64,000 nt of DNA, taken from NCBI GenBank assembly GCA_016432525.1, contig CP066693.1, positions 160,815-224,814 of the forward strand. The letters run 5' to 3'. This stretch comes from Candidatus Woesebacteria bacterium. Lineage in GTDB: Bacteria; Patescibacteriota; Microgenomatia; UBA8517. Made by a program: the position numbers and the translations under genes. The notes below the pieces were generated by a model, which saw only the letters and a list, made by a program, of their open reading frames with translations, was not told the origin of the DNA and made no database searches. Numbering within the stretch: the stretch's first letter is position 1; each line of letters starts with the position of its first letter. Positions 15,619 to 64,000 of the stretch are shown here, one piece after another.

Positions 15619-15717
15619 TAGTCTCTATTTTACCTCAAATATCTTTTTTACACAAAAAAAAGGGCGCCTTTCATGAAATATTTCTATTTCCAGGCGTCCT
15701 CTATTAAAAACATCAAA

Positions 15718-16191: not shown

Positions 16192-16303
16192 CTTAGTTTC
16201 CTTATTTTAAAGAACTTTCGATTCCTAATTATAACACTATAAGATGAAATATGCTATAATAATCCTGTCCATCTAGTATATTGTTCCTTGAAAGGGAAAT
16301 TTC

Positions 16304-16720: not shown

Positions 16721-16768
16721 AACCATGGTAAAACATATAGGCAAATAGCATTTTAAAAAGAGGTAAAA

Positions 16769-17038: not shown

Positions 17039-17084
17039 TCCAACCACATTCACAGCCCTCAACCAAACAAAAACCAGTTGGGGG

Positions 17085-17915: not shown

Positions 17916-17977
17916 CTTGCTCGAGAATAAAAATCACCTGCCTGCCGGCAGGCTGGTCTGCTAGTTTTCCGACTTTA

Positions 17978-17994
17978 CCCCGATTTAATCGGGG
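17978..17994. repeat. Hairpin-forming 17-mer ccccgatttaatcgggg (copy 1, intergenic)
   Basis: 7-bp stem ccccgat/atcgggg with tta loop. An identical 17-mer recurs at 18707..18723. It sits 23 nt downstream of the perfect 12-bp palindrome cctgccggcagg (17941..17952) in the divergent promoter region. Confidence 0.5.
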
Positions 17995-18164
17995 TTTACG
18001 GTTGCGGCACAGCGAGGGATTTACACCCTACTTCCTTTAACACAGATTAGTATTAAACATATTCTCAAGTGGTAAACTTGTAAAGATAACAAACTATATA
18101 AAAAGATTCACCGTGAAAATGTGAAATACTTGATTAAATCTCTTCACGATATAAGCTTAAAGTA

Positions 18165-19217: not shown

Positions 19218-19911
19218 AAATTTTACAAACAAAATACCAATATTAAATATTCCAGATGTTCCAATTGTTGCAACAACCCAAGATCATCTTCCAATTGAAG
19301 ATATTGTAGATAACATGCTTATCTACAAAGATGGTGGAGCAGCAATTGTATTAGAATCAACATCTTTAAACTTTGGTCTTCTCTCTGATAACGAGCAAGA
19401 AGCAGTAATCGCAGCTTACGCAGCACTCCTAAATAGCCTTTCCTTTTCAATTCAAATTCTAGTCCGATCTCAAAGAAAAGATATTTCAAATTACTTACAG
19501 TATTTAGAAAAAGAAGGAGCAAAAATCCAAAATCCCAAACTCCAGGTCTTAATGACTGGTTACAGAAACTTCATATCAGAAACTATTAAAAAGAAAAATG
19601 TACTAGGAAAACGCTTTTTTATAATTCTCATGTTTTCTTCTCTAGAGCTGGGAGTTACAAAATCCTTTATGGCTTTCACTAAAAGATCAAAGATCCTTCC
19701 TTTTTCAAAAGAATATGTCATAAAAAAAGCAAAAATCACTCTCTATCCCAGAAAAGACCACATTACCCGCCAGGCATCTCGCTTGGGTTTAAAACTCAAA
19801 GAGTTAGATTCAAACGAGTTGGTAGAATTATTCTATGATATCTATAATCCAAAGCCACCGGCTACATCAATAAGAGAGGAGAAAGATGAATCCACAACAA
19901 TCACAAGCTAA
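19204..19911 (+). CDS. Hypothetical protein in T4SS-like cluster (immediately upstream of and overlapping VirB4 start)
   Basis: 235-aa ORF, translationally coupled (overlaps) on both sides; no recognizable motif. Confidence 0.4.
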   Translation: MKSFKNFTNKIPILNIPDVPIVATTQDHLPIEDIVDNMLIYKDGGAAIVLESTSLNFGLLSDNEQEAVIAAYAALLNSLSFSIQILVRSQRKDISNYLQYLEKEGAKIQNPKLQVLMTGYRNFISETIKKKNVLGKRFFIILMFSSLELGVTKSFMAFTKRSKILPFSKEYVIKKAKITLYPRKDHITRQASRLGLKLKELDSNELVELFYDIYNPKPPATSIREEKDESTTITS

Positions 19912-49173: not shown

Positions 49174-49904
49174 TGGAAAATCCGATTAAGTATTAAAGTA
49201 AGTTCAAACAAAATTACTAAAGGCAAGGTGAGTAAGATGTCTGCAAGTACCGAATCTGGTGGCAATAGGACAGCAAAGATAAAAGAGCCGAGATAAATCC
49301 ATGGACGTTGCTTGCTTAGATGTTGATGCTTAACAATTCCGATACGCATCAAAAGTAAAAGAACTATTGGAAATTGAAAACCAATTCCCATCAAAGCAGA
49401 AGTCAAAACTACTGTTGTAAGTAAATTGCTAATGTCTAGTATATTGCCAATGCCCAATGAAATTGATCTACTAAGAAATATTTGAATTTGCCATTTCATG
49501 ATAAGAGCTCCAAACAAAAATCCGCCTAAAAAAAGAATCAGTGAAAAAGGCAAAAACCTGACAACCATTTTATACTCCTTTATCCTAAGAGCTGGCTTCA
49601 AAAAAGATAAAATTTGAATTACAAGGACTGGAAAGGACAGAATAAGTCCAGAAGCCACCCCACAAGAAATCGCTAGATTAATAAATTGAAAAGGTGAAGT
49701 AAAAACTATATTAATACCTTTTAGACTAAGAATGTCAATCAAAAATTTTATTATCTCTTCATAAAAGAAAAATCCACCCATGGTTGCTAACCCAAAAACC
49801 AAAAGTGTAAAAACGATTCTTTTTCTAACTTCGTTTAAAAAAGGGGAGTACTTATCAACTAAAGCTTTTAGCTCAGGAGAAGTAAGGGGTTTAATATTTT
49901 CCAC
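49170..49904 (-). CDS. tatC: Twin-arginine translocase subunit TatC
   Basis: 244 aa, 6 TM; N-terminus LTSPELKALVDKYSPFLNEVRKRIVFTLLVF typical TatC. Confidence 0.7.
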   Translation of the reverse strand: MENIKPLTSPELKALVDKYSPFLNEVRKRIVFTLLVFGLATMGGFFFYEEIIKFLIDILSLKGINIVFTSPFQFINLAISCGVASGLILSFPVLVIQILSFLKPALRIKEYKMVVRFLPFSLILFLGGFLFGALIMKWQIQIFLSRSISLGIGNILDISNLLTTVVLTSALMGIGFQFPIVLLLLMRIGIVKHQHLSKQRPWIYLGSFIFAVLLPPDSVLADILLTLPLVILFELTLILNRIFH

Positions 49905-49926: not shown

Positions 49927-50091
49927 TTACTCTTTTTTTTCTTTTTCATCGCTATCTTTTGAAGCTTTCTTAAACTCTCTGACAGCATCCCCAAGACCCT
50001 TGAAAAATTCTGGGATTCTCTTACCTCCAAACAAAAGAAGTACTATAACTGCAACAATTATTAATTCAGTCGGTCCTATAGATTGAAACAT
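49927..50091 (-). CDS. tatA: Twin-arginine translocase TatA/E-family protein (second copy, 54 aa)
   Basis: Not in ORF track (under 60 aa). Reverse-complement translation MFQSIGPTELIIVAVIVLLLFGGKRIPEFFKGLGDAVREFKKASKD... has the TatA TM-hinge (FGxK.P)-amphipathic helix pattern. Confidence 0.6.
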   Translation of the reverse strand: MFQSIGPTELIIVAVIVLLLFGGKRIPEFFKGLGDAVREFKKASKDSDEKEKKE

Positions 50092-50094: not shown

Positions 50095-50307
50095 CTACTT
50101 TGAAGCCTCCTTTTCTTTTTTAGAAGATTTGTCACCATCATCTTCTATCGCTTCAGTAAAATTCTTTTTAATTTTTTTAATCTCTCTAAAAGTCTCGCCC
50201 GCTCCTTTACTCAAATTGATAACTACTTTACTGCCAAAAAATACTATCAAAATTAAAGCAATAATTACAAGCTCTGTCGGGCTTATATTTTTTATAAAAT
50301 CAAGCAT
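50095..50307 (-). CDS. tatA: Twin-arginine translocase TatA/E-family protein
   Basis: MLDFIKNISPTELVIIALILIVFFGSKVV...LSKGAGETFREIKK. Confidence 0.65.
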   Translation of the reverse strand: MLDFIKNISPTELVIIALILIVFFGSKVVINLSKGAGETFREIKKIKKNFTEAIEDDGDKSSKKEKEASK

Positions 50308-50362: not shown

Positions 50363-50563
50363 CTACACTTTACTCATGGCCGTTGTAAACCAATAAGACC
50401 CGTTAAAATATTCAAGACTATTGGTTTGGGAGTTAAAGCCAAACGTTCCTCGTCTTGCTTTTTTTGGCCTGCTGCGATTAGTCCATGAAACAAGTGTCGG
50501 AAGACTGATTATCACGGATAAACCTTGACCAAGATCCATCAAGAGGGGTAATTTTTCTGCCAT
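50363..50563 (-). CDS. Stand-alone copy of the conserved C-terminal module of the S-P-S-[I/V] repeat protein (66 aa); possibly a gene fragment/cassette
   Basis: SWTNRSRPKKARRGTFGFNSQTNSLEYFNGSYW aligns residue by residue with SWNIAGRPKNVKKGTFGFNFQTNHLEYWNGSAW at the C-terminus of CDS 50580..52169. Confidence 0.45.
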   Translation of the reverse strand: MAEKLPLLMDLGQGLSVIISLPTLVSWTNRSRPKKARRGTFGFNSQTNSLEYFNGSYWFTTAMSKV

Positions 50564-50579: not shown

Positions 50580-52169
50580 TTAAATTTTCTTCATTGGAAG
50601 TTTTAGCCAGGCTGATCCATTCCAATATTCCAAATGGTTTGTTTGGAAATTAAATCCAAACGTTCCCTTCTTTACATTTTTCGGTCTGCCGGCAATATTC
50701 CACGATGGGATTACCTTCTGTTCAATAGGACCAAATAATTGTTGAGTAGCTGTAATTTTGCGGCTAATGATCTGAGGATTTCTCATAAATATTGGTTTTT
50801 CTTCAACCAATGGCAATGGTAATTCGGCTACAGAAGGACTAGCTGATGGGGATGGACTTATGCCGGCGGAAGGGGATGCGGAAGGGGATGCGGAAGGGGA
50901 AGGACTACTTACACCAACTGATGGTGACACAGATGGTGAAGCGCTTGCTCCGGCCATAGAAGGGCTGGCTGAAGGACTAATACTGGGTGATATAGAATTC
51001 GGAGGTGAAATACTTGGAGAGATTGAAGCCGATGGAGATACACTCGGGCTGGCTGAAGGACTAATACTGGCGCTGGGAGAAATAGAAGGCGATCTTGACG
51101 GCGAGATTGATGCTGACGGTGACACAGATGGTGAAACACTTGCAGAGATGCTAGAAGAAAGAGATGGGCTAACAGATGGAGATATAGATGCTGATGGAGA
51201 GATTGAAGCCGATGGAGATACACTCGGGCTAACAGATCGAGAAACACTTGGTGAAGCAGACGGTGAAATACTTGGAGAGATTGACGGGGATGTGCTCGAA
51301 ACGGCTGATGGTGAAACAGAAGGGCTAATTGAGGGACTTATTGACAGACTAATAGATGGAGAGATTGATGCTGACGGTGACACAGATGGTGAAATACTTG
51401 GAGATCTTGAAGGTGAAACGCTTGGACTTGGAGACATTGAGGGGGAAATCGATGGTGATACTGATGGAGAGGTGCTTGGACTAGGCGAAACAGAAGGCGA
51501 GATACTCGGGCTAGATGAAGGAGAAATTGATGGCGAAGGAGATACAGACGGAGACACACTTGAGCTTGGTGAAACTGAAGGTGATACTGAAGAGCTGATA
51601 GACGGTGAGACAGAGGGCGAGATAGATGAGCTAATGGAAGGAGATACAGATGGGGAAGGTGAGATCGATGGACTAACCGAAGAACTGATGGATGGTGAAA
51701 TACTTGGACTTGGTGAAACTGACGGACTAATTGACGGACTTATAGATGGAGATATTGAAGGAGATGGTGAAACAGACGGCGATGCACTTACCCCAACTGA
51801 AGGTGAAACTGATGGTGAAATCGAAGGAGAAATTGATGGCGAAACAGATGGAGAGACAGATGGGGACGCACTTACACCAACTGATGGCGAAACCGAAGGA
51901 CTTATAGATGGTGAGACACTCGGACTTGGTGAAACAGAAGGGGAGATCGATGGTGATCTTGAAGGAGATACGCTTGGGCTAATGGAAGGAGATATAGATG
52001 AGGAAGGTGAAATAGATGGACTTACTGATGGTGAAATAGAGGGTGAAACACTTGGACTAGGTGAAACAGATGGACTAATTGACGGACTTACAGATGGTGA
52101 AATACTTGGGCTTGGTGAAACAGACGGACTTATTGATGGTGAAACAGAAGGAGAGATCGAAGGTGACAC
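50580..52169 (-). CDS. S-P-S-[I/V] tetrapeptide-repeat protein, segment C (repeat tract + conserved C-terminal domain)
   Basis: About 110 tandem SPS[IV] units then ...ELPLPLVEEKPIFMRNPQIISRK...KGTFGFNFQTNHLEYWNGSAWLKLPMKKI. GTG start lies 17 nt after the stop of segment B in the +2 frame. Confidence 0.55.
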   Translation of the reverse strand: MSPSISPSVSPSISPSVSPSPSISPSVSPSISPSVSPSPSVSPSISPSVSPSISPSSSISPSISPSVSPSRSPSISPSVSPSPSVSPSISPSVSPSVGVSASPSVSPSVSPSISPSISPSVSPSVGVSASPSVSPSPSISPSISPSISPSVSPSPSISPSISSSVSPSISPSPSVSPSISSSISPSVSPSISSSVSPSVSPSSSVSPSVSPSPSISPSSSPSISPSVSPSPSTSPSVSPSISPSMSPSPSVSPSRSPSISPSVSPSASISPSISLSISPSISPSVSPSAVSSTSPSISPSISPSASPSVSRSVSPSVSPSASISPSASISPSVSPSLSSSISASVSPSVSPSASISPSRSPSISPSASISPSASPSVSPSASISPSISPPNSISPSISPSASPSMAGASASPSVSPSVGVSSPSPSASPSASPSAGISPSPSASPSVAELPLPLVEEKPIFMRNPQIISRKITATQQLFGPIEQKVIPSWNIAGRPKNVKKGTFGFNFQTNHLEYWNGSAWLKLPMKKI

Positions 52170-53700
52170 TGACGGTGATGCACTTACTCCAATTGAGGGG
52201 AAACCGAAGGACTGATTGATGGACTAATAGAGGGTGAGATAGATGGTGATGGTGAAACAGATGGCGAAATACTTGGTGATCTCGAAGGTGAGACACTCGG
52301 ACTTGGTGAAACCGAGGGTGAAACAGATGGGCTGACAGAAGGAGATATGGAAGGTGATGGTGATGCGGATGGCGATATCGATGGTGATCTTGAAGGAGAT
52401 ACGCTTGGGCTAATGGAAGGTGATATTGATGGACTTGGAGAAACAGATGGAGAAATAGAGGGGCTAATTGATGGTGAAATACTTGGGCTTGGAGAAACCG
52501 AAGGACTGATTGATGGACTAATAGAGGGTGAAGCGCTTGGTGAAATACTTGGACTTAGAGAAGGTGAAACAGATGGACTAATTGACGGACTTACAGATGG
52601 TGAAATACTTGGGCTTGGTGAAACAGACGGACTTATTGATGGTGAAACAGAAGGAGAGATCGAAGGTGACACTGACGGTGATGCACTTACTCCAATTGAG
52701 GGGATATAGATGCCGAGGGTGATACAGAAGGCGAGACGCTCGGACTGATGGATGGAGAAACAGAGGGTGAAGGAGATACAGAAGGAGATACGCTTGGCGA
52801 GATAGATGGAGACACACTTGGACTAACTGATGGTGAAACACTTGGACTAGGAGAAACAGATGGTGATATTGATGGACTAATGGAAGGAGATATAGATGAG
52901 GAAGGTGAAATAGATGGACTTACTGATGGTGAAATAGAGGGTGAAACACTTGGACTTGGAGAAACCGAAGGACTGATTGACGGACTTACAGATGGCGAAA
53001 TACTCGGACTAACTGAAGGAGAGACACTTGGTGAAACCGAAGGACTTATAGATGGTGAAATACTAGGACTTGGTGAAACAGATGGCGAAATACTTGGCGA
53101 GATAGATGGAGACACACTTGGACTAGGTGAAACAGATGGACTAATGCTGGGTGATATTGATGGAGATATAGATGCCGAGGGTGATACAGAAGGCGAGATA
53201 CTCGGACTGATTGATGGAGAAATACTAGATGATGGTGAAACAGATGGACTAATTGACGGACTTACAGATGGAGATACACTCGGACTTGGTGAAACAGATG
53301 AACTAATAGATGGTGAAATAGAAGGTGAAACTGACGGACTAATACTTGGACTGACAGATGGTGATACTGATGGTGAGGGGGAAACAGATGGACTAATAGA
53401 TGGACTTATTGACGGTGAAAGAGATGGTGAGGGGGAAACAGATGGGGAGATTGAAGGGCTAACTGAAGGAGAAATGGATGGTGAAGGAGATACAGAAGGA
53501 GATACGCTTGGCGAGATAGATGGAGACACACTTGAACTTGGTGAAACAGAAGGGGAGATCGACGGTGACACTGATGGTGAAACAGATGAACTAATAGATG
53601 GTGAAATAGAAGGTGAAACTGACGGACTAATACTTGGACTGACAGATGGTGATACTGATGGTGAGGGGGAAACAGATGGACTAATAGATGGTGAAAATGA
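50830..53700. repeat. ~2.9-kb degenerate 12-nt (4-codon) tandem repeat tract encoding (S-P-S-[I/V])n on the minus strand
   Basis: Plus-strand units of the form ga[tc]gg[tcag]ga[ag]a[ct][at]ga[at]gg...; every frame on both strands is open, giving the mirrored D/E/G-rich and H/L-rich ORFs in the track. Exact 142-nt repeats at 52060-52201 and 52563-52704. Confidence 0.9.
52184..52672 (-). CDS. S-P-S-[I/V] repeat protein, segment B (pure repeat, 162 aa)
   Basis: Begins GTG and ends SPQLE-stop inside an exact 142-nt repeat. Reading frame of A continues into B and C if one nucleotide is restored at each junction. Confidence 0.45.
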
Positions 53701-54375
53701 AGACCCTGCCTCATTCCAAGTAAGTGTTATTGCGCCAACAGCACCTGTTCCGCCTCTTTTGACGGTTGTTCCTGAATTACTTCCCGCGCCGCCTCCACCA
53801 CCGCCAGGATATACACCGTTAGAACCGTTAGCATTAGCTGCTCCACCACTTCCACCGCTTCCGCCGCCTCCTGCGCCGCTTCCGCCGTTGGGCGGTGCAC
53901 CATTGGTACCGCTGGCTCCATTCTGGGCATTTCCAGCTGCAGCTCCTCCACCTCCGCCTACGGTGGTTGCATTCGCAGCGCCATTTCCACCATTATTTCC
54001 AGCAGGAATTGAATTAACTCCGTTTCCTGCAGCACCTCCAGCACCACTTCTGTTTCCGGCGCCACCACCTGAAGCTTCAACCTCATTATTGTTATAACCA
54101 GACTGCCCACCTGGAGTTCCGTTAGTATTGTTGGTACTTGCCCCTGCACCTCCAACGCCGATTAGAATAGTCAAGACATCGTTTGGATTTGCAACGACAC
54201 TATTGATAGTATAAGCTCCACCTCCGCCTCCTCCAGCACCATGAGCGCCTGTAGTTCTACCGTAAGAACCACCTCCACCTCCGCCTCCCCAAACTTCAAC
54301 AGTAACATTACCACTTATATTGCTTGGAACTGTCCAGTTATTATTATTGTTGAAGGTGATTGTATTTTGGGCCAT
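52687..54375 (-). CDS. S-P-S-[I/V] repeat protein, segment A (Gly/Asn-rich N-terminal domain + repeat tract)
   Basis: Firm start (in-frame TAG two codons upstream): [39 protein letters not shown]...[12 protein letters not shown]. ~210-aa Gly/Asn/Ala-rich domain then ~85 SPS[IV] units. No signal peptide. Confidence 0.6.
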
Positions 54376-54450: not shown

Positions 54451-55704
54451 TTATCCTTTAATGACGTACCATATCCGCCCCGGCCCAATTGCCGGCTTTA
54501 GCAGACAATCAAAAAGGGCTTTCTTAACCGTCTCATGATCATAATCATGTCCGCAAAATAACTTCTTACACTTCGGAAGCCAGGCCTTTACATCCTTCAC
54601 GACCGAATCATAATCATGAGAAGCATCAATCCAGACCATATCAATAGAATTGTCCTCAAACTTTTCAGATGCGGTTATACTATCCAATCGAATAAGATCA
54701 ACATTGGAAAAATCTTTTGTATTTTTTATAAATTCTTTCTCAACATCCACGGCCGGTGAATCTCCAACTTTAGGTATAAGAAACCTCTCCGGAACAGTGG
54801 CGTATCCGTCGGATGGATTTGCTTGAAAATTATCGATTGCATATACCTTGCCCTTGCAAGCACTAGCCAGAGCGTGTGCGTCTCTCCCTTTCCAAGCGCC
54901 AATTTCAGCAACACAGTTCATATCTTTGGCCATGAGGTAGAGCCACGACAGTTCAGGTAAATCTGTCCATCCCTCAATCTTCGGGTCTTTATAATCCGTT
55001 ATTTCCCATGTGGCGAGAATATTTTTCATCAATTCCACTTTTTCCTTTATATTGATGGTATATTGGTGCCAGAAATAGTTTCCGCCGCCGCGTTCTTCTA
55101 TAATCTTATCCACTCTCTTAAACTTTAAACCAAAACGGGCGATATTTCGAGAAAGCATATAATCATCTATCAAATGCTCGCGAGTAATTACCGTATTCAA
55201 TTCATTCTGGATTGGAAATATATTCTTTAATGCCTCTTCGTAAGGTATATCTAAAGGATGCCAGAGATCCAGACACCAATCAGAAGCAATTGTCAGCCAA
55301 TTACAAGAACCAATATGCCGTCCATCCCGACGGAAATAATCATCATATCGCCAACGAATATTTGCCATGTCATTACCATTATGGCAAACCGTGTCTTTAG
55401 AAATAAACTCTGTTACATCAAACATATCCGGGTGAACTAAAGCATCGGAGTCAATATAAATATTCCAATCATTTTTCATTTGCCGGCCGAGGTCATAAAT
55501 TTGCATCTTCTCATATACCGGTGGAAATTTGGGAAACTTGCGCTCTTTGATAATATAAAAATCAGCCCCTATTTTATCTGCGTAGCGCTTGATCAAGGGA
55601 TAAGTAAATTCTGTTATTTCCGGAGCATACCCGTCAACATTGAGAGTAAAAATAGTTTTTTTTAATTTTCTTTGACCCATACTATCTGTATTATACAATT
55701 CCAT
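54451..55704 (-). CDS. Bifunctional-looking protein: N-terminal GT-A-like nucleotide-sugar transferase domain (DxD) + C-terminal class I SAM-dependent methyltransferase (Methyltransf_24/TylF-like)
   Basis: N-terminus ...NIYIDSDALVHPDMF (DxD). C-terminus CVAEIGAWKGRDAHALA...IDMVWIDASHDYDSVVKDV...LFCGHDYD, characteristic of macrocin-O-methyltransferase-like MTases. Confidence 0.5.
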   Translation of the reverse strand: MELYNTDSMGQRKLKKTIFTLNVDGYAPEITEFTYPLIKRYADKIGADFYIIKERKFPKFPPVYEKMQIYDLGRQMKNDWNIYIDSDALVHPDMFDVTEFISKDTVCHNGNDMANIRWRYDDYFRRDGRHIGSCNWLTIASDWCLDLWHPLDIPYEEALKNIFPIQNELNTVITREHLIDDYMLSRNIARFGLKFKRVDKIIEERGGGNYFWHQYTINIKEKVELMKNILATWEITDYKDPKIEGWTDLPELSWLYLMAKDMNCVAEIGAWKGRDAHALASACKGKVYAIDNFQANPSDGYATVPERFLIPKVGDSPAVDVEKEFIKNTKDFSNVDLIRLDSITASEKFEDNSIDMVWIDASHDYDSVVKDVKAWLPKCKKLFCGHDYDHETVKKALFDCLLKPAIGPGRIWYVIKG

Positions 55705-55709
55705 TTATA

Positions 55710-56816
55710 TTAAAGTAGACGACCTGCATTAATTCGAGAATCGTAAATGGTTTTTGTAATAAATCTGTCAGGCTGAGGCTCACTTTCTTCAGATTTGATA
55801 TCATTACTTGCCCCATTAAATTTAAAAGTATTTGCTTTCAACTTTGCCAGCTCCGCTTCCGTCCAACCCTTAACCGGCCAAAATTTTTCCAGAAGCCAGC
55901 TTAGAGGATGAACCTGTTTGGGCCAATTATTATTAAAAAAAAGTTCCCGGGCATAGGTCCTGGCTTTTTCTTGGTCCTTATTAGACATCGGGTAGGGGAA
56001 ACCAAAATCTCCCCCTTGGGTTCTAAACATATGAGCATACCACGTCTTATGATTGACGAAAACTTGTCCTCCAGAAAGCCAAGTTTTGACTGCCACTTCA
56101 ATTCCTTGGGAACCCCAACCTCCGAAATTCTCATCGCAGACATCTAATTGCCAGTATTTCTCTCGAGTCAGCATCCAAGCTGATCCCTGAAGAGACATTG
56201 TCTCGGTTAGTCCTTTTCCTTTTTTATCTTTTTCGTATTGTGGTCTATGCTTCCAGTCTTCAAAATATTGAAAGTGGGGAGTTGAATCAAAACAATAGGA
56301 AGTGCTCTGGGGATTGTGCTTTCCGGCCCAAATCAATTTTCTAATAAACTTTTTACTGTCACAAGGTTTACCAGTTTTTCTAAAATTAGTCTCACGACAT
56401 TTAGTTGGAGTTGGCCCTTGGTACCATTTCTTTCCACATTTTAGGCATTTCCAATCAAACGCCCAGAGATTTCTCATTATAGGGACCATTGTTACATTGT
56501 CTCCTGTAATTTTAAATGCCTCGAGCATTTTGCGGTCAAATCCTTTGTCAAAAGAACAATGAGCATCACACTTCATAACGTATTTTGCCCGGGAGAGCTT
56601 GCAAGCAAGATTAGTAGCTGCTCTTTGTCCAATTGACTCCGGAAGATAAACAACATTAACCCGGTCATTCTGCGTGATTGGCGGCTCTGCAAGCTTACCA
56701 TCCAAGACGACAATAATTTCTGTATCAGCTTCAATGTTTACCAAAGCATCGTCTACAGTGTTTTTGAGAAACATCTCATTGCGAGCAGGAATTAAGATAC
56801 TCAAATCATGGTCCAT
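55710..56816 (-). CDS. GT-A fold glycosyltransferase with DxH and WG..E motifs reminiscent of polypeptide GalNAc-transferase (GT27/GT7/GT2 clade)
   Basis: LSILIPARNE (GT2-type N-terminus), VVLDG, YVMKCDAHCSF (compare ppGalNAc-T LDAHCE) and FGGWGSQGIEVAVKTWLSGGQVFVNHKTWYAHMFR (compare WGGENLEISFRVWQCGG...GHVFR). Soluble, no TM. Confidence 0.5.
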   Translation of the reverse strand: MDHDLSILIPARNEMFLKNTVDDALVNIEADTEIIVVLDGKLAEPPITQNDRVNVVYLPESIGQRAATNLACKLSRAKYVMKCDAHCSFDKGFDRKMLEAFKITGDNVTMVPIMRNLWAFDWKCLKCGKKWYQGPTPTKCRETNFRKTGKPCDSKKFIRKLIWAGKHNPQSTSYCFDSTPHFQYFEDWKHRPQYEKDKKGKGLTETMSLQGSAWMLTREKYWQLDVCDENFGGWGSQGIEVAVKTWLSGGQVFVNHKTWYAHMFRTQGGDFGFPYPMSNKDQEKARTYARELFFNNNWPKQVHPLSWLLEKFWPVKGWTEAELAKLKANTFKFNGASNDIKSEESEPQPDRFITKTIYDSRINAGRLL

Positions 56817-56867
56817 GTTTTGTTATGCAAAATTCTAAGCTTAACTGTTGCGCAAAGCAAGTGAAGA

Positions 56868-57401
56868 CTATGCTTTTTGGAACTTGAAGTAATAGTGTTG
56901 ACGATCATATTTATATATCGGACCGTCTACTAACCTAAAACCTGCATTATCAACAGTGATTACAAGGTCATTTGGCGTCCATGTGTGGTAACGCTGACCA
57001 GGCTGTGTAAACCTTCCACCTGATGAAATGCTTACGTAAAAGTATTTTTTAATGACACGCCTTGCTTCTGACAATGCCTTTTTGAAGTTGCTAATATATT
57101 CCAAAGTGTCTGACATTAGAGCTGAATCAAATTGCCCTATTTTATAAGGAAGACGGGTGGCGTTTCCTAAATCGACCTTGACGCCCTTTTCAGCTGCAAG
57201 TTTGATAGCGTAAGGATCATTGTCAACTCCTTTTATGGTAAGAACATGGCTAATTAAGCCATCGCCAGCACCGATATCAATGGTATTTTCCTCGCGAACG
57301 TATCTACTTAAGAATTGGACATGCCTCACATATCGTTGCTTTGCTCCAGCATACCAATCCCAATGATACGCTCCAAGCTTTTTATAGGGAGTTGTTACCA
57401 T
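56868..57401 (-). CDS. Class I SAM-dependent methyltransferase
   Basis: Motif I IDIGAGDGLISHVL; post-I acidic residue; 177 aa. Confidence 0.6.
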   Translation of the reverse strand: MVTTPYKKLGAYHWDWYAGAKQRYVRHVQFLSRYVREENTIDIGAGDGLISHVLTIKGVDNDPYAIKLAAEKGVKVDLGNATRLPYKIGQFDSALMSDTLEYISNFKKALSEARRVIKKYFYVSISSGGRFTQPGQRYHTWTPNDLVITVDNAGFRLVDGPIYKYDRQHYYFKFQKA

Positions 57402-57447
57402 CTGTATAATTTATAATACATCAATCATGGTTTGACAATGGTGACTA

Positions 57448-58026
57448 TTAATATTTTTTTCTAACAATAATTAATATGTCACGTTTTCTGTTGTCAGGAA
57501 ATTTAAAAACTTCACAGTTATACTCTGTTAATTCGTTCTTGATGCAATCCGGACGGTTGGAGTCTTCAATTACATAGATAACGTCTTTTTTAAGAAGGGG
57601 CATAAGAGTGCAAACTGCTTGTAATTGAAATCGTTCATTGTGAGGTCCATCGTCAATTACAAGATCTATATCTGAGCCTATTTCTTTTATCAGATTTTGC
57701 AAGTTGGGGATTCGTGACGTACTTGATAAGATTGTTTTTATTCTGTCAGTTTGGAAAATAGTGCTTGGGTGTCGGTCTACGCCATAAATTTGGGCATTTG
57801 GGAAAAAATCTCGCCACATCAAAAGACTTGCGCCTGTTTGATAGTGTTTTGGAACATATTGCATTGTATATTTGCTACCAATGCCTAATTCTAAGATTTT
57901 TTTAAATTTTTCTTTTTTGTCTTTTAGGAGTTGGTAGTATACAGGAGTGTAGTTATGTCCAAGTTGAGGGCACTTATCGGTTCCGTATTTATAAGCTAAT
58001 TCGCAAAGCGGTGTTTGATTTTTCAT
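57448..58026 (-). CDS. Class I SAM-dependent methyltransferase
   Basis: ILELGIGSKYT motif I, ...IYGVDRHP..., DLVIDDGPH. Confidence 0.55.
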   Translation of the reverse strand: MKNQTPLCELAYKYGTDKCPQLGHNYTPVYYQLLKDKKEKFKKILELGIGSKYTMQYVPKHYQTGASLLMWRDFFPNAQIYGVDRHPSTIFQTDRIKTILSSTSRIPNLQNLIKEIGSDIDLVIDDGPHNERFQLQAVCTLMPLLKKDVIYVIEDSNRPDCIKNELTEYNCEVFKFPDNRKRDILIIVRKKY

Positions 58027-58865
58027 ATGATTTTATATTTATAAAATAAGTCTCTTAATCTCTCATTAACTAAGACTTTGTTTAACTTATTTTTGCCAAA
58101 GACGCAAACACCAATATTATCATTGCCCAATTCCACCTCTCTTTTGTCAAAAGGATGGAAATGGATAACCTTAAGAGGCTTTTTAGCCTCTTCGTAACAA
58201 ACAGAAATATTTCTTTTCCTGGTCGCAAAATTGTAAGTAATATTTAATTTTTTAATAAACTCATTCATATTACTTCTATTTCTTCTAGTTAATGCTAAGA
58301 GAGCTACTTCTTCGTTAGATTGATATTGATAAACCTTGTCTTTTATCAATCTGAAAATAAATTCAGAATCTTTGGTAAAAAAGATACTTCCAGTACTCCA
58401 CCATCTGTCATGAGATTCGTTGATGGTAGTTTTTCCATAACCTGTTAAAGCAAACGGAAAATTCCCCAAATTAAGCTCTTCCTCGGTAATTTTCTCTAAT
58501 TGGAAGGCATCTAGATCATGAAACCACCAAAGATCATCTCCAATTAAGCCTTTGTCAAAAAGATAAAGTATTGCAAGGATTTTGGTTGCCCTCTTTTTTA
58601 TTTCGCAGAAAAGTTCATCGGGCACAACCATGGATTTGATTCCCATGTATTCATAATCAAAATTAGTTATAAATATAATATCTTTGGGTTTCCAACCCAA
58701 CTCTAAGCTATTTTCAATCTGAATTTTTGCCAAAATTTCACTTTCTTTATTCCACTCATCTTCAGCAAAACATTTTTGGGGATTAAGATAAATAAGTAAA
58801 TTTTTCATGACAACACCTCCTTCAAGTTCCAACCAGGTATTTTGTCTATTGTTGTTTCGATCCAA
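58023..58865 (-). CDS. Hypothetical protein, possible GT-like enzyme (HDLDAF DxD-like motif)
   Basis: Soluble 260-280 aa. Start likely MKNLLIYLNPQK (about 58806) to avoid overlap with upstream gene. Assignment weak. Confidence 0.35.
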   Translation of the reverse strand: MDRNNNRQNTWLELEGGVVMKNLLIYLNPQKCFAEDEWNKESEILAKIQIENSLELGWKPKDIIFITNFDYEYMGIKSMVVPDELFCEIKKRATKILAILYLFDKGLIGDDLWWFHDLDAFQLEKITEEELNLGNFPFALTGYGKTTINESHDRWWSTGSIFFTKDSEFIFRLIKDKVYQYQSNEEVALLALTRRNRSNMNEFIKKLNITYNFATRKRNISVCYEEAKKPLKVIHFHPFDKREVELGNDNIGVCVFGKNKLNKVLVNERLRDLFYKYKII

Positions 58866-59509
58866 CCAGTAGGTTTGTGAATAAACTGATTTAATCTTAC
58901 TTTTGATGAGGAGAATGTTCCAACATGACGTATGTCAATATTTGGATATTTAGAACTCCATTCTTCATTTTTCTCTTCAAGAAATGCTCCATTACGTCTT
59001 TTCTTGCGTCCCGGTTCATATCCCCATACTCGGGCTAAATATGGATCTTTCTCACGGAATTTCTCAAAGCCAAGTTCCTTCATTCTTTTCTGCCGTGCTT
59101 TGAAATGATTGAATAATAGAACTCTATTTGCGCAAAGCTGGGAAAGAGAAGTTAATCCGTCGTATTTAATTATTTTTTTGCTTGGATAACCCCATCTCCA
59201 GTTGCTCATATTATAGTAGTAAACATCTTCTTTTGAAGGTGTAAAGTCAAAATGTGATTTATGGTACAAAACATCATGCTCACAAAAAAATACACAATCT
59301 ACACTACTTGCTTCAAGAGCCGCAATAATTTGATTAACCATGGTAGGATATCCTGGTTTGCCTTCAATAACTATATTCTTACCAAAATTTATCGGCTTTA
59401 AAGAGACACTTGTTATTGGCAATCCTGATGCAAGTATGTATTTTTGGCAGATAGAAAAAAGAGGTTCTATTAATCTGTTATCAGTATAATAAATAATACC
59501 TTTGGTCAT
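58805..59509 (-). CDS. Hypothetical protein in glycan-modification cluster
   Basis: 234-aa soluble ORF, co-directional and overlapping with neighbours; no recognizable motif. Confidence 0.4.
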   Translation of the reverse strand: MTKGIIYYTDNRLIEPLFSICQKYILASGLPITSVSLKPINFGKNIVIEGKPGYPTMVNQIIAALEASSVDCVFFCEHDVLYHKSHFDFTPSKEDVYYYNMSNWRWGYPSKKIIKYDGLTSLSQLCANRVLLFNHFKARQKRMKELGFEKFREKDPYLARVWGYEPGRKKRRNGAFLEEKNEEWSSKYPNIDIRHVGTFSSSKVRLNQFIHKPTGWIETTIDKIPGWNLKEVLS

Positions 59510-60120
59510 GGTTTGAAGAACATGTAGCTTAAGATATCATCAACTCTCCTCCCAGTGATTGATTTTTCCCTACCTAAAATATACCAGTTGGTTATGTTTT
59601 TAGCTTTGACAAATGCTTCTATTATAAAAGTAACATCATTGGTGTGAGAGCCATTGGTTTTAGAACCAATCACTTTATGATAGTCGTGTCCGGCTATAAT
59701 TCCACCAGATTTAACCTTGTCATACCATTTCATTAGGTCCATCGCTACATAACCGAAAGTATGATTGGCATCTATATAAACAAAATCAAGACTGTTGTTT
59801 TGTATATCTAATAAAGCATCCATTGAAGTTTTGCGGATAATACTACAGTTGGAGTATTGTGCTATCCTTTTTATGGTAGTAAGATACATATCTTCCAATC
59901 TTCTTGGAGCTCGATAACCCTGATAACTTGCCCATGGATCAATTCCGTACATTGTGAGGCCGGCGTGACAATATAATACTAGATTTCTTCCTGTAAAAAC
60001 ACCAATTTCAGCACCAGTTTTAAATCCTAACTGCTTAAAAAATTCAGGTAATTCATTTCTGGAGGAATCTGGTATTTCAAAAGGTTTACCTTTATGTTTC
60101 AACGCATCAATTAGTTTCAT
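59506..60120 (-). CDS. Class I SAM-dependent methyltransferase (Methyltransf_24-like)
   Basis: GAEIGVFTGRNLV motif I; FVYIDANHTFGYVAMDLMKWYDKVKSGGIIAGHDY. Confidence 0.55.
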   Translation of the reverse strand: MKLIDALKHKGKPFEIPDSSRNELPEFFKQLGFKTGAEIGVFTGRNLVLYCHAGLTMYGIDPWASYQGYRAPRRLEDMYLTTIKRIAQYSNCSIIRKTSMDALLDIQNNSLDFVYIDANHTFGYVAMDLMKWYDKVKSGGIIAGHDYHKVIGSKTNGSHTNDVTFIIEAFVKAKNITNWYILGREKSITGRRVDDILSYMFFKP

Positions 60121-60151
60121 TCATTAACAATTTTGACTATGATAACATATC

Positions 60152-61717
60152 ATGATAATGAAAATAGTTGGGTTTCAATCAGGCCATGACGTAGCTTATT
60201 GCATTTTAGAAAATGGTATTCCAATTCTTCATGAAGAATTGGAAAGATTTAGTAGAAGGAAAATGGAAGTGGGGGATGGATTAAAATTTTTCTTTTCAAG
60301 ATTTAGTGAGAATACCAACGATATAAAATATTTCACCTTTGGAAATCTAAACGGCAGGACTGGTAAATGGCAGAGTCGTTGTGGTGAAAAAGAAAGCGAT
60401 GACAAAATGAAAAAAATTTTAAGAGAAAATCACGGCTCTTTTTATGAATTTCCACATCATTTATGCCACGCTGCTAACGCCTTTTTTACCAGCAGTTTTG
60501 ATAGATCTTTAATTATTACTCTAGACGGCGGAGGATTTGAAGCAGACGATTCAGTGACGTCGTTTACCATAAGTGAAGGGATTGGCAATAAAATCAAAAG
60601 AATAAAGGTATTTCCCATCTCAGAAATTGATTTTGGTGGCCTTTGGAATGATGCAACTAAAAATATATTTAGTTTATCAGTCGGCCCTCCGAAAGGCAGT
60701 CAAGAAGGTACTGTTATGGCAATGGTAGCTCTCGGCGAACCAAAATATCTTAATCTTTTTAATCCGTATAGGCGAAGTAAATTACACTCAATTGCTAATT
60801 TGTCGGAGCAGGAAAAATTTAATGTTGCTACATCTTTGCAAAAGTTTACAGAAGATACATTTTTAAATTATGTATCAAAATACATTAAAAAATCAGGTCA
60901 CGAAAATATTTGTTTTTCAGGAGGCGTGTCATTAAATAGTGTCATGTTAGGCAAACTTAAAAGTTGGTTCCCTCAAATCAAAAACGTTTTTTGTGACCCT
61001 GTTCCATATGACGCAGGTCTAGCTTTGGGTTCTGCTCGTTATCTCTGGCATCATGTCTTAGAATATCCACGAATTAAAGATATTAAAAACATGCCCCCAT
61101 ATTTAGGAAAAATATATTTAAAAAAAGATATAAAAAGTGCTTGTAAATCTTATATAAATAAAATTAAAGTGAAGAAAGTTGATGATGATAAGGTTGTAAA
61201 ATTAATTGACGATCAAAAAATAGTATCTGTTTTTGGTGGGGGATCAGAAAGTGGGAGGAGGGCGCTTGGAAATAGAAGCATTTTAGCTGATCCAAGAAAT
61301 CCTGAAATGAAGAAAATTATAAATGAAAAAGTAAAACACCGAGAGTGGTTTAGACCTTTTGCTCCATCGATTTTAGAAGAAAAAGTAACTGACTGGTTTG
61401 AGGATAATTACAAAAGTCCTTATATGTCTTTTGCAGTAAAGTTTAAAAAAGAAAAAAGAAATCAAGTACCTGCTGTCGTTCATTATGATGGTACTGGAAG
61501 ACTCCAGACTGTTAATGAAGTCTTAAGTCCTTGGTATTACAACTTTATAAAAAAATGGGAGTTGATATCAGGTGTGCCGATTTTATTAAATACTAGCTTC
61601 AACGATAGTGAACCAATTGTAGAGACCCCAGAAGATGCAATAAGGTGTTTTTTGGGAACTCAAATAGATTATTTATATTTTTTTGATTATGGCTTATTAG
61701 TTGAGAAATTAATTTAG
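60152..61717 (+). CDS. Carbamoyltransferase (NodU/CmcH family)
   Basis: N-terminus MKIVGFQSGHDVAYCILENG (Kae1-like carbamoyltransferase N-domain), conserved GGVSLNSV and C-terminal carbamoyltransferase domain (FRPFAPSILEE). Confidence 0.7.
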   Translation: MIMKIVGFQSGHDVAYCILENGIPILHEELERFSRRKMEVGDGLKFFFSRFSENTNDIKYFTFGNLNGRTGKWQSRCGEKESDDKMKKILRENHGSFYEFPHHLCHAANAFFTSSFDRSLIITLDGGGFEADDSVTSFTISEGIGNKIKRIKVFPISEIDFGGLWNDATKNIFSLSVGPPKGSQEGTVMAMVALGEPKYLNLFNPYRRSKLHSIANLSEQEKFNVATSLQKFTEDTFLNYVSKYIKKSGHENICFSGGVSLNSVMLGKLKSWFPQIKNVFCDPVPYDAGLALGSARYLWHHVLEYPRIKDIKNMPPYLGKIYLKKDIKSACKSYINKIKVKKVDDDKVVKLIDDQKIVSVFGGGSESGRRALGNRSILADPRNPEMKKIINEKVKHREWFRPFAPSILEEKVTDWFEDNYKSPYMSFAVKFKKEKRNQVPAVVHYDGTGRLQTVNEVLSPWYYNFIKKWELISGVPILLNTSFNDSEPIVETPEDAIRCFLGTQIDYLYFFDYGLLVEKLI

Positions 61718-62823
61718 AACTTAACTAGTTCTGGAAAAGTATCTGGATCTTTTGGATCATATATTTCATTAATCCAAAATATTGTTAATAGATCTTTCTT
61801 TCCAATATTTTTGATTGAATGGGTATGAAATGTTGGCATATCGATATACACAGGTCGTTTCCCAGAAACTTTGTATGTATAAACCTTTTTGGAAAATAAT
61901 CTTCTTATTTTTATTTCTGCCTTACCTTTAATTACACAAAAACGTTCAATTTTTCGGGTATGATAATGATTTCCTCTCACTATGTTTGGGTGAGTTGTAG
62001 AAAAAGAAATTTGACCGCGTGTTTTGGTTTTGACAACTTCAACAAAAGCTCCACGCTCATCTTTTTTCAGATCTAAATTTACTGGAAAATGATTAGGATA
62101 AAGATAAGAACGAAAAGTGTTAAATAACTGAAGTTCGAAATTATTTTTAAATTTGGGAAAAATATCAAAAAAATACACGTCCCTAAAATTTTTCAATAAA
62201 GAGTAAATATCAGTTAGTTGCATTTTTTTGCCATTTGGAATAATTGTTTTAGAAGATTTTTTCTTAAATAAGCTAGTAATTAAGCAACATATATCTTGAA
62301 TATAAATTAGTTCAACTTTTGCATCAGGATTTACAACTGACTTTTTATTTTTTGAAAGTTCGTAAGCTAAGCTAGCAATAGCGGAATTATAGTAGGGTTG
62401 TGCAAATTCACCAAAAATATGTGGCGCAACTATTGAGAAAGTGGCAACTCTATTTTTTGTACCCCAATCTAGGATCATTTTTTCAGAGTCTCTCTTTGAA
62501 CGTCCATAAGCTGTGTTTCTTGTATTGTGGGTCGAAGACAAAAAAATAATTTTCGGTCTTTTATTTATCTTATCAAGAGTAGTTAGTATTGTTTTTGTTA
62601 ACTTGGTATTAATTTCGTATATTTCTTTTTCTTCTCCACGGTTTAATCCAGCTAAATGGACTACGATATCACATCTTTTAAGTTTTTTTGCAAGTTTTTC
62701 AGAAGTAGAGAAATCAGATTTTTGTACGGAAATTGGTTTATATTTATCTCTTTGTCCATATAAAAAGAAACGCAAATGAGTCCCAACAAATCCTGAAGCG
62801 CCTGTTATTCCTACTCGTACCAT
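61714..62823 (-). CDS. Bifunctional NAD-dependent sugar epimerase/dehydratase (N-terminal Rossmann) + cupin sugar 3,4-ketoisomerase/3,5-epimerase-like (C-terminal)
   Basis: MVRVGITGASGFVGTHL Rossmann GxxGxxG; C-terminal GAFVEVVKT...RGNHYHTRKIERFCVIKGKAEI cupin motif. Confidence 0.6.
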   Translation of the reverse strand: MVRVGITGASGFVGTHLRFFLYGQRDKYKPISVQKSDFSTSEKLAKKLKRCDIVVHLAGLNRGEEKEIYEINTKLTKTILTTLDKINKRPKIIFLSSTHNTRNTAYGRSKRDSEKMILDWGTKNRVATFSIVAPHIFGEFAQPYYNSAIASLAYELSKNKKSVVNPDAKVELIYIQDICCLITSLFKKKSSKTIIPNGKKMQLTDIYSLLKNFRDVYFFDIFPKFKNNFELQLFNTFRSYLYPNHFPVNLDLKKDERGAFVEVVKTKTRGQISFSTTHPNIVRGNHYHTRKIERFCVIKGKAEIKIRRLFSKKVYTYKVSGKRPVYIDMPTFHTHSIKNIGKKDLLTIFWINEIYDPKDPDTFPELVKF

Positions 62824-63938
62824 ACAACTCTTTTGATGTAGTTTATATAACTAAGTATGATCCGCAAGACCTTCTGGGAAACATGAGGATGTGAGTATTC
62901 TTGAGATACTGTTGGTTTATATCCATCACTTTGTTGTTTTTTAGTTAAGTTTATTGATTGCAAAACTCTCTCTGGGTCAAGTCCTGACATAATAACGGCC
63001 GCCTCATCCATAGCTTCAGGTCTTTCGTGGGCTTCACGAAGGTTAATTGCTGGAAAACCAATAATAGAGGATTCTTCGCTAATTGTTCCAGAGTCTGAAA
63101 GCGTACAAAAAGCATTTATCTGAAGATTTAAGTAGTCAAAAAAGCCTAATGGTTTTAAAACTCGAACAAGTCTAGGTAGTTTTTTATTGATTGATTTGAT
63201 GCGTGCGAGCGTTCTTGGATGACAAGAAAAAATAATCGGCATTTTATATTCTTTTGTAAGTTTATCTAATGTGTCATATAGTTTACTAAAATTTATCGGT
63301 GAATCGACATTTTCTTCTCTGTGAACTGATAATACAAAATATTTTTCTTTTAGAATTTTTAATTTTTTAAGAATGTTTGATTTATCGATTTCTTTTTTAT
63401 GTTTGTTTAAAACCTCATACATAGGAGAACCCGTTTTTATAATTCGATCGGAACTTAACCCTTCACGTAATAAATTTTGGCGCGCAAGCTCAGAGTAAGG
63501 CATATTAATATCGCTTAAGTGATCTATAAGTCGGCGATTTATCTCCTCAGGCACTCTAAAATCAAAACATCTATTGCCGGCCTCCATATGGAAAATTGGA
63601 ATTTTTCTACGTTTTGCAGCATATGAAGACATGGAGCTGTTGGTGTCTCCCAAAACAAGAAATGCATCTGGCTTTTCTTTTTCTAATATTTTATCCATCC
63701 CAGTGATAATGTTACCTACTGTGATTGTTGCTGTTTTTCCTATAGAGTTTAAAAAATAGTCCGGCTTTCTTAAATCTAAATTGTCAAAAAAAATTTGGGA
63801 AAGTTCATAATCATAATTTTGACCTGTATGAACAAAAATGTGATCAACATGTTTATCTAATTCTTTTATTATTTCTGATAATCTAATAATCTCAGGTCGG
63901 GTTCCTACAACTGTTAATACTTTTAATTTCTTATTCAT
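62811..63938 (-). CDS. wecB: UDP-N-acetylglucosamine 2-epimerase (non-hydrolysing)
   Basis: MNKKLKVLTVVGTRPEIIRLSEII...HTGQNYDYELSQIFF...LVLGDTNS family signature. Confidence 0.8.
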   Translation of the reverse strand: MNKKLKVLTVVGTRPEIIRLSEIIKELDKHVDHIFVHTGQNYDYELSQIFFDNLDLRKPDYFLNSIGKTATITVGNIITGMDKILEKEKPDAFLVLGDTNSSMSSYAAKRRKIPIFHMEAGNRCFDFRVPEEINRRLIDHLSDINMPYSELARQNLLREGLSSDRIIKTGSPMYEVLNKHKKEIDKSNILKKLKILKEKYFVLSVHREENVDSPINFSKLYDTLDKLTKEYKMPIIFSCHPRTLARIKSINKKLPRLVRVLKPLGFFDYLNLQINAFCTLSDSGTISEESSIIGFPAINLREAHERPEAMDEAAVIMSGLDPERVLQSINLTKKQQSDGYKPTVSQEYSHPHVSQKVLRIILSYINYIKRVVWYE

Positions 63939-64000
63939 TTAACTCTTTTTTAATGTAGTCGAGTGAAAGAAGTAGTTTTTCAATTTCGGGAACAATAAGG

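Follow-up and report, generated by a model that had tools for sequence, protein, structure and literature searches.

The question raised by this locus is which molecule its enzymes modify. Within a stretch of 64,000 nucleotides from the Candidatus Woesebacteria bacterium contig CP066693.1 (positions 160,815 to 224,814; here called the window, positions 1 to 64000, which is the part of this genome covered by the analysis), ten clustered genes at 54451-63938 encode a glycosyltransferase (GT), S-adenosylmethionine (SAM) methyltransferases, and further enzymes, and a gene for a Ser/Pro-repeat fibre lies beside them. The organism is an ultra-small bacterium of the candidate phyla radiation (CPR; Patescibacteria). 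We read the cluster as a lipid-carrier-independent protein O-glycosylation cassette with the adjacent fibre as its substrate, and hold this to be the probable answer, if one still well short of certainty. As the pairing of the GT with Ser/Pro-repeat genes recurs across genomes and phages, the fibre is probably the target. Direct O-glycosylation of the adjacent (SPS[IV])n protein had been proposed in an initial annotation of this DNA, and it is supported here by kinship of the GT with family GT27, by the Ser/Pro linkage, and by the lack of recurrent lipid-carrier genes at related loci; the accompanying label "mucin-type" (GalNAc-alpha-Ser/Thr) is kept only as an analogy.

The ten open reading frames (ORFs), numbered g1 to g10 by position, are all present and intact where the initial annotation had placed them. 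Nine share the minus strand, in keeping with its description of the genes as co-oriented or adjacent, and the carbamoyltransferase gene g8 (60152-61717) alone lies on the plus strand. With a hydrophobic segment defined as any 19-residue stretch with a Kyte-Doolittle mean of at least 1.6, none was found in the ten ORFs or in the three ORFs of the Ser/Pro-repeat gene, and all of these products are therefore predicted to be soluble, as had been claimed for the enzymes. Searches of the window proteins against Pfam, NCBIfam, and PHROG identified four class I SAM methyltransferase domains in the cluster, fused or stand-alone (the C-terminal half of g1, g3, g4, and g7). The gene list first drawn up was mostly borne out; g5 and g6, the link with phages, and linkage to the twin-arginine translocation (Tat) system had gone unnoticed.

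The candidate for an initiating polypeptide O-glycosyltransferase is g2 (55710-56816, minus strand), a predicted soluble GT-A enzyme resembling families GT27 and GT60. Pfam places Glycos_transf_2 across amino acids (aa) 6 to 118, and the protein carries CDAHC at aa 83 to 87, with DxH at aa 84 to 86, WGSQGIE at aa 234 to 240, and H262 inside HMFR. Both motifs named in the initial annotation, CDAHC and WG..E....W..GG with H.FR, are thus there, the second with a spacing unlike the one typed: WGSQGIEVAVKTWLSGGQVFVNHKTWYAHMFR (aa 234 to 265) matches a relaxed regular expression and not the exact one. Set against the Gal/GalNAc-T-type motif WGGENxE...CGG...H.FR, it reads WGSQGIE...WLSGG...HMFR, with slightly different spacing. 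D84, H86, H262, W234, G235, and E240 are invariant across 38 homologues, and D84-A-H86 and H262 align with the metal-binding residues of the DxH and GHVFR motifs of polypeptide GalNAc-transferases (ppGalNAc-Ts).

Among solved structures, g2 is closest to the ppGalNAc-Ts, both by sequence and by modelled fold. A phmmer search against all PDB sequences matched GT27 polypeptide GalNAc-transferases only (best E value 1e-4, in the WG...H.FR region), and the top 50 Foldseek matches to the AlphaFold2 model were all GT27 (E values 1e-13 to 1e-10). The model, built with 38 homologues, has a predicted local distance difference test score of 74, with a core above 85, three loops and the tail disordered, and the C-terminal 35 residues at low confidence; the GT-A fold is confirmed at the level of this predicted structure. 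Assignment to the cell-wall GT2 enzymes, which the initial annotation had named as the outcome that would count against it, is not what was found, as both searches point to GT27. No GT60 member occurs among the solved-structure matches. Pfam gave no Ricin_B_lectin match in g2, and the hydrophobicity scan gave no membrane anchor. The polypeptide GlcNAc-transferases of protists in GT60 are set apart from GT27 by the absent ricin lectin domain (PMC8724618); as g2 is without this separating domain, it is termed GT27/GT60-like and filed in neither family.

The family to which g2 belongs exceeds 7000 clusters at 90% identity and is annotated as "family 2 glycosyltransferase" only. Its GT-A domain holds a Cys-rich, zinc-ribbon-like insertion at aa 124 to 152 (consensus WKCxxCG...CxxCG) that ppGalNAc-transferases are without. 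Many homologues are fused at the C terminus to a truncated UDP-glucose/GDP-mannose-dehydrogenase-like module (P0023; L011:9989-11995, where L numbers denote comparison loci), which comprises part of the N domain and the central domain, with the C-terminal domain missing, and which can be a separate 257-aa gene in phages (L159:3692-4462).

Evidence on the acceptor comes from gene linkage. Scanning one genome per species (GTDB), in species other than that of the window, gave 74 GT loci at 53 to 78% GT identity, in Microgenomates, Parcubacteria, WWE3, Saccharibacteria, and a few DPANN archaea. Across them, Ser/Pro-rich coding accounts for 85,341 of 422,286 bases downstream of the GT (20%) and for 1,140 of 576,625 upstream (0.2%), and its strand is that of the GT without exception. 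Of the 38 loci having at least 5 kb of downstream flank, 29 show a Ser/Pro-rich region there, on the strand of the GT, and 18 further contigs end within such a region. The complete orthologues are single intact ORFs of 900 to 2465 aa, in which a variable beta-rich N-terminal head precedes SxSPSx repeats, and the C-terminal domain is of one of two conserved types. Of the cassette genes, the GT is conserved best (53 to 85% identity across CPR phyla, DPANN archaea, and phages), and the accessory transferases and methyltransferases differ in number and kind, a pattern one would expect of a GT that recognises the invariant SPSx repeat.

Counting genes within 10 kb of the GT, g6 accompanies it at 65 of the 74 loci and a g7-type Methyltransf_24 methyltransferase at 60, and we therefore take the GT, g6, and Methyltransf_24 as the conserved core. 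The genes around it, transferase-like or methyltransferases, vary and are often present in several paralogous copies: g1-like genes are found at 47 loci, g5 at 22, g4 at 17, and g3 and the carbamoyltransferase g8 at 6 each. Neither g9 nor g10 occurs at any; these two are local to this genome, and g8 too is outside the conserved cassette. Other cassettes also hold a radical SAM/SPASM enzyme, an epimerase/dehydratase of the short-chain dehydrogenase/reductase (SDR) type, an HNH/NUMOD3 homing endonuclease, and a DegT-type aminotransferase (L111:5719-6498, L118:6297-7154, L099:3522-4106, and L068:4860-5936), so content is highly modular, and AbiEi/AbiEii toxin-antitoxin pairs are inserted within some (L034:11056-12346 and L077:7904-9158).

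The same loci bear on whether the product might be a glycan unattached to protein. The initial annotation had stressed that flippase and polyprenyl-phosphate transferase genes are lacking; because the window ends at 64000, this cannot be judged from the window, and it was therefore tested on the 74 related loci, where none recurs. Only 21 of 1195 ORFs there have at least four predicted transmembrane (TM) segments, and 14 of the 21 are TatC, the only polytopic membrane protein that recurs near the GT. Judged by predicted TM segments, no recurrent Wzx/Wzy/ABC/WecA-like family lies within 10 kb at these loci. The neighbourhood comparison suggested earlier, of Ser/Pro co-occurrence with Wzx/Wzy co-occurrence, thus comes out as Ser/Pro regions in 29 of 38 loci and no recurring export family of the Wzx/Wzy type. 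Together with the GT27 matches of g2, all three counts of the refutation named in the initial annotation come out in favour of its proposal.

It is nevertheless conceivable that the product is a glycan, free or bound to the wall (a cell-wall polysaccharide, a teichoic-acid-like polymer, or a glycolipid), or that the cassette remodels the host surface as an "auxiliary metabolic" function of phages, with Ser/Pro adjacency reflecting a shared surface role only. Groundwater virome surveys find GT genes to be common in CPR and DPANN viruses and read them as modifying the host cell surface (PMC11310336, PMC12911398), and the families of g9 and g10 are best known from capsule and O-antigen pathways. 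However, g9 and g10 are present in 0 of the 74 related loci, where no polyprenyl-phosphate transferase, flippase, polymerase, or ATP-binding cassette (ABC) exporter recurs either, and the window enzymes are without any TM segment. The strict side and strand relation to Ser/Pro genes is hard to square with a loose association, and the phage version of the cassette lies inside a structural module with Ser/Pro-repeat proteins on both sides. On balance, we consider a free-glycan product unlikely.

That phages of these bacteria carry the same cassette, flanked by the major head protein gene on one side and genes for Ser/Pro-repeat structural proteins on the other, is evident from 154 IMG/VR contigs with the cassette GT (56 to 69% identity). 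Counts cover 80 of these loci: g6 is found at 74, Methyltransf_24 at 65, a Ser/Pro-rich region at 55, g5 at 24, g4 at 19, g3 at 7, g10 at 2, and TatC at none. The pairing of the GT with a downstream Ser/Pro region on the same strand holds in 33 of 42 phage loci. Neighbouring genes encode a major head protein (phrog_14242, E value 8e-72), a head maturation protease, and a large terminase, and the contigs therefore represent real phages. The usual order runs from the major head protein through a 300- to 430-aa Ser/Pro-tailed protein, a short GT2 paralogue, and g6, methyltransferase, and other genes to the GT27-like enzyme, a 900- to 1200-aa Ser/Pro-repeat protein, and further structural genes; the cassette is thus bracketed by two Ser/Pro-repeat proteins directly after the major head protein. 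The literature we searched makes only general remarks about GTs in CPR phages; neither this cassette nor its Ser/Pro-repeat link was found described there.

A phage setting also invites the thought that the GTs and methyltransferases modify nucleic acid rather than protein, in the manner of DNA hypermodification. Phages do glycosylate DNA bases, and the Methyltransf_24 domains match phrog_2675, a family labelled "DNA methyltransferase". Against this stand the GT, which is nearest to polypeptide-specific enzymes, the occurrence of the cassette in cellular chromosomes beside Tat, and the sugar-tailoring enzymes that accompany it (carbamoyltransferase, CapF-like, SDR, and DegT aminotransferase); a base hydroxymethylase or similar enzyme was not seen. 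Modification of nucleic acid therefore seems highly improbable.

The proposed acceptor is encoded at 50580-54375 on the minus strand, next to g1, and reads as three ORFs (52687-54375, 52184-52672, and 50580-52169) that are one gene. In the joined product, roughly 230 aa of Gly-rich N-terminal domain are followed by some 1000 aa of (SPS[IVASL])n repeats, and the protein closes with a conserved C-terminal domain whose last residues are IPSWNIAGRPKNVKKGTFGFNFQTNHLEYWNGSAWLKLPMKKI. The same 1-nucleotide loss breaks the gene twice (CCTTCA to CCTCA, giving "...SPQLE*"), and each break lies in one copy of a 152-nucleotide segment duplicated at 98% identity (52050-52201 and 52553-52704). Stop-codon reassignment was considered as the cause of the split and rejected, the break being a change of frame and not an in-frame stop. 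The C-terminal domain is 43 to 51% identical to the ends of intact orthologues of 1108 to 2372 aa (L004, L012, L021, L037, L039, and L053), and a 66-aa paralogue of it (RPKKARRGTFGFNSQTNSLEYFNGSYW; 50363-50563, minus strand) follows the fibre gene and is kept at the equivalent position in L004, L021, L039, and L053, with a gene of 66 to 68 aa called there in L077 and L079. The N-terminal domain matches the phage family phrog_863 (E value 3.5e-10), and the combination of a Gly-rich head with a "YWNGSxW" tail also occurs in phage proteins (L158:13870-15282 and L159:11677-17013).

Two plus-strand repeat ORFs across this gene (50860-52215 and 52748-54097; Asp/Gly/Glu-rich) were rejected as genes, since they mirror the Ser/Pro frame. 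In related contigs (L077 to L080), public annotations likewise place products of 561, 354, and 714 aa, none with a Pfam match, on the wrong strand; giant Ser/Pro proteins are often mis-annotated in this way.

The broken reading frame raises a further possibility, namely, that the locus of the window is a decayed, phage-derived and no longer functional remnant, its fibre gene a pseudogene and its enzymes relics. Consistent with this, the fibre gene is interrupted twice by an identical frameshift, its head and tail domains have phage relatives, close relatives of the whole cassette are located in phage structural modules, and the parcubacterial chromosomal versions include a Phage_cement_2-like gene. 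All ten enzyme ORFs are intact, however, and orthologous chromosomal loci keep intact fibre genes (1108 to 2372 aa) in the same synteny with Tat. Moreover, the frameshifts lie in a nearly identical duplicate within a repeat array that was not crossed in either of two independent short-read assemblies of this organism carrying the exact g2 (L001 and L002); as both contigs stop inside the repeats, an assembly artefact is no less likely than a true pseudogene. No capsid, protease, or terminase homologue was found in the window or at the 74 genome loci, and the setting is chromosomal, with DnaA, GroEL, leucyl-tRNA synthetase (LeuRS), and a ComM-like protein encoded in the same window. The idea of a prophage was rejected on the absence of these phage homologues and the nearness of DnaA, GroEL, and LeuRS; the chromosomal loci are thus not obviously prophages, though phage-type domains are present. 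That the locus is a dead remnant appears quite unlikely to us.

In chromosomal loci of Parcubacteria (L034:5553-6140, 15468-15872, and 15947-20712), the Phage_cement_2-like protein, with an N-terminal Cys motif, precedes the cassette. A bAvd/23S-IVP gene, resembling accessory genes of diversity-generating retroelements, directly follows the fibre gene there, and after it come membrane-anchored proteins with Ig, cohesin, and dockerin-like matches.

If the fibre is glycosylated in the cytoplasm, it would need a route to the surface, and the neighbouring genes offer a candidate. Downstream of the fibre gene in the window come the 66-aa paralogue, two TatA genes (50095-50307 and 49927-50091), and TatC (49170-49904), all on the minus strand, an order kept in other Microgenomates; in Parcubacteria, TatC and TatA instead head the co-directional, operon-like cassette block. 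TatC lies no more than 10 kb from the GT in 15 of the 74 loci, in 10 of the 24 with at least 8 kb covered on both sides, and is co-oriented with it in 14 of the 15, a frequency far exceeding chance for one 20-kb span in a genome of about 1 Mb (Tat-linked loci include L004, L021, L034, L037, L039, L053, L056, L059, L074, L077, and L079). Lacking a signal peptide and made bulky by its presumed glycans, the fibre could plausibly be exported by Tat. Export of the fibre by Tat is offered as a conjecture, by analogy with the accessory Sec system of serine-rich-repeat adhesins; it is opposed by the fibre itself, in which no twin-arginine motif was found. A twin-arginine signal on either the fibre or the 66-aa paralogue was rejected, as there is no conserved RR followed by a hydrophobic region.

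Among the other cassette enzymes, g1 (54451-55704, minus strand), between the GT gene and the Ser/Pro gene, joins a highly conserved N-terminal domain (aa 1 to 245, with an "IYIDSD" motif) to a Methyltransf_24 domain (aa 267 to 380, by Pfam). It had been described as a fusion of a GT-like domain with a methyltransferase; the methyltransferase half stands, and the GT-like half could not be verified, its sole signal being a faint Glyco_transf_21 match (E value 0.02, in 3 of 8 homologues). The family of the N-terminal domain counts 1711 homologues at 65 to 83% identity, fused or stand-alone and without a Pfam match, and full-length relatives of g1 occur in L028, L033, and L065.

The core enzyme g6 (58805-59509, minus strand) belongs to a family without a match in Pfam, NCBIfam, or PHROG. 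Its GT-A/nucleotide-diphospho-sugar-transferase fold, with an invariant E77-x-D79, was resolved solely through structure prediction, and on that basis we propose it as a second glycosyltransferase, or possibly a nucleotidyltransferase. Its neighbour g5 (58023-58865, minus strand) has an invariant H-D-x-D (aa 97 to 100 of a 261-aa form starting at 58808) and found no match in Pfam, NCBIfam, PHROG, profile searches of PDB sequences, or hhalign; to call it a transferase is only a guess. Scanning each alignment member of g5 and g6 at E values up to 1 gave no family match, profile searches of PDB sequences gave none for g5, g6, or the N-terminal half of g1, and hhalign detected no relationship among the profiles of g5, g6, g2, and the N-terminal half of g1.

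Three further SAM methyltransferases had been announced, and all three are recovered: g3 (56868-57401; Methyltransf_11, Pfam E value 4e-12) and g4 (57448-58026; weak Methyltransf_24, Pfam E value 3e-4, and a methyltransferase match to phrog_21658, E value 3e-8) as accessory genes and g7 (59506-60120; class I, Methyltransf_24, Pfam E value 5e-13) as the third member of the conserved core, each on the minus strand. Equally upheld were the NodU/CmcH-type O-carbamoyltransferase, the epimerase/cupin gene, and the UDP-GlcNAc 2-epimerase. The first is the accessory gene g8 (Carbam_trans_C, E value 6e-63; Carbam_trans_N, 1.5e-22; NodU, 4.5e-38). The second, g9 (61714-62823, minus strand), combines Epimerase and Polysacc_synt_C domains as a WbjC/CapF/FnlB-type SDR plus cupin protein of 6-deoxy-L-N-acetylhexosamine (HexNAc) nucleotide-sugar synthesis, and scores against the UDP-2-acetamido-2,6-beta-L-arabino-hexul-4-ose reductase model NF047837 at an E value of 3e-71, below the equivalog cut-off. 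The third, g10 (62811-63938, minus strand), is a WecB-family UDP-HexNAc 2-epimerase (Epimerase_2, E value 8e-93; TIGR00236 above cut-off), possibly FnlC/CapG-like. Local add-ons both, g9 (FnlB/CapF-like) and g10 (WecB/FnlC-like) may belong to the UDP-L-FucNAc/L-QuiNAc pathway (FnlA-FnlB-FnlC; CapE-F-G). No FnlA/CapE dehydratase was found within the window, whose end is 62 nucleotides beyond g10; as the cluster reaches this edge (63938-64000), the FnlA/CapE-type dehydratase that is needed with g9 and g10 may lie just past it.

These assignments can be combined into a tentative sequence of events. Soluble g2, through its DxH metal site, would move the first sugar from a nucleotide sugar to the serine hydroxyls of SPSx in the cytoplasm. 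The glycan could then be extended by soluble transferases, g6 with its GT-A fold and perhaps g5 and the N-terminal half of g1, and O-methylated by the SAM methyltransferase domains of g1, g3, g4, and g7. In this genome, g8 would in addition carbamoylate the glycan, and g9 and g10 would supply a 6-deoxy-L-HexNAc-type donor; methyl and carbamoyl groups are what we infer from the enzyme families. The product would be a glycan-coated, extended stalk with a variable N-terminal binding head, which in the cell would probably reach the surface, possibly via the adjacent Tat system, to be held there by its conserved C-terminal domain. Of these steps, initiation, extension, and tailoring draw on family similarity, the acceptor and the final product on gene linkage, and the cytoplasmic site on absence of evidence.

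Several observations weigh against glycosylation of the fibre by this cassette. Gene adjacency by itself does not identify an acceptor, and in 9 of the 38 loci with enough flank there is no Ser/Pro region within 10 kb. In g2, the position aligned with the conserved Glu of WGGEN in ppGalNAc-Ts is Gln (WGSQG), while g5 and the N-terminal half of g1 are without assignable function. Neither a signal peptide nor a twin-arginine motif can be recognised in the fibre, and its gene, with two frameshifts, may be a pseudogene here if the breaks are not an artefact of assembly.

Should protein O-glycosylation by the cassette prove true, the huge g2 family would be the initiating enzyme of that process in CPR bacteria, DPANN archaea, and phages, and the enzymes that initiate mucin glycosylation would have a prokaryotic relative that is soluble and easy to express, which would bear on the origin of GT27 and GT60. 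The conspicuous CPR repeat proteins of 1000 to 2500 aa, often called on the wrong strand, would be glycosylated surface or virion fibres and thereby candidates for episymbiont-host attachment and phage-host recognition, and the GT "auxiliary metabolic genes" of CPR phage surveys could be re-read as virion-modification genes. The Tat linkage suggests a testable export route for a bulky, pre-glycosylated protein. It could further be speculated, though we think it rather unlikely as a whole, that CPR bacteria, DPANN archaea, and phages share a prokaryotic counterpart of eukaryotic mucin-type O-glycosylation, in which a soluble GT27/GT60-like GT acts in the cytoplasm to coat SPSx stalks with methylated glycans; in cells, the signal-less glycoprotein would leave via Tat and be displayed by its C-terminal domain as a host-attachment fibre, phage virion fibres would be decorated likewise, and the family could be near the prokaryotic ancestors of GT27 and GT60.

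Elsewhere in the window, a VirB4/TraG-type P-loop ATPase gene (19886-23401, plus strand) carries an intein with a LAGLIDADG endonuclease domain.

How the cassette relates to known systems can be considered first for its GT. With GT27 and GT60, the latter including the cytoplasmic Skp1 enzyme Gnt1, g2 shares the GT-A domain, DxH, the third His in H-x-F-R, and, in slightly altered spacing, WG...E...W..GG, and a dense Ser-rich repeat is the proposed acceptor here too. As in g2, the ricin lectin domain is absent from GT60 (PMC8724618), and Gnt1 is soluble, as g2 is predicted to be. In contrast, g2 is only 13 to 20% identical to these enzymes, is prokaryotic or phage-borne and without a signal anchor, and differs in the Cys-rich insertion, in Gln for the Glu of WGGEN, and in the frequent dehydrogenase-like fusion.

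A parallel in organization is offered by the serine-rich-repeat glycoprotein (SRRP) systems of Gram-positive bacteria (GtfA/GtfB with further GTs, and SecA2/SecY2), in which a giant repeat adhesin is encoded beside soluble GTs, undergoes cytoplasmic glycosylation independent of a lipid carrier, and has a dedicated exporter encoded adjacent (PMC7948813, PMC6973325). The SRRP initiator, however, is a GT-B (GT4) pair, whereas a GT27-like GT-A enzyme is proposed here; no GT-B domain was found in the ten genes, the fold of g10 being that of an epimerase. SRRP repeats are rich in Ser-Ala/Val/Thr and without proline, whereas those described here are proline-containing SPSx, and SRRPs carry an N-terminal signal and an LPXTG anchor, whereas the fibre of the window has no signal peptide. 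The linked translocase is SecA2/SecY2 in the one case and TatA/TatC in the other, and the present cassette is methyltransferase-rich. SecA2, SecY2, and Asp1-3 did not turn up in the scans of the window and the 74 loci, in which no search was aimed at them. As for Wzx/Wzy- or ABC-dependent polysaccharide clusters, with their initiating transferase, flippase or transporter, and polymerase, the ten genes encode no TM protein, and TatC alone recurs among polytopic proteins at the 74 loci.

Virion glycosylation offers another precedent, known for the capsid and tail tube of mycobacteriophages and for chloroviruses, whose capsid glycans are made by the GT-GT-methyltransferase enzyme A064R. In such systems, virus-encoded soluble GTs and methyltransferases, including GT-methyltransferase fusions, are encoded in or beside structural genes and act on structural proteins in the cytoplasm. 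The GT families differ from that of g2, the present cassette is also fixed in cellular chromosomes, and its acceptor would be long SPSx stalks, not short C-terminal extensions or N-linked sites. Glycosylation in mycobacteriophages is mentioned in PMC11256854. Taken together, and to the extent that fibre glycosylation is the correct reading of this locus, as we think it probably is, the system would share its logic with both SRRP and virion glycosylation while differing in its initiating family, its proline-containing repeat, its linked translocase, and its sharing between cells and phages.

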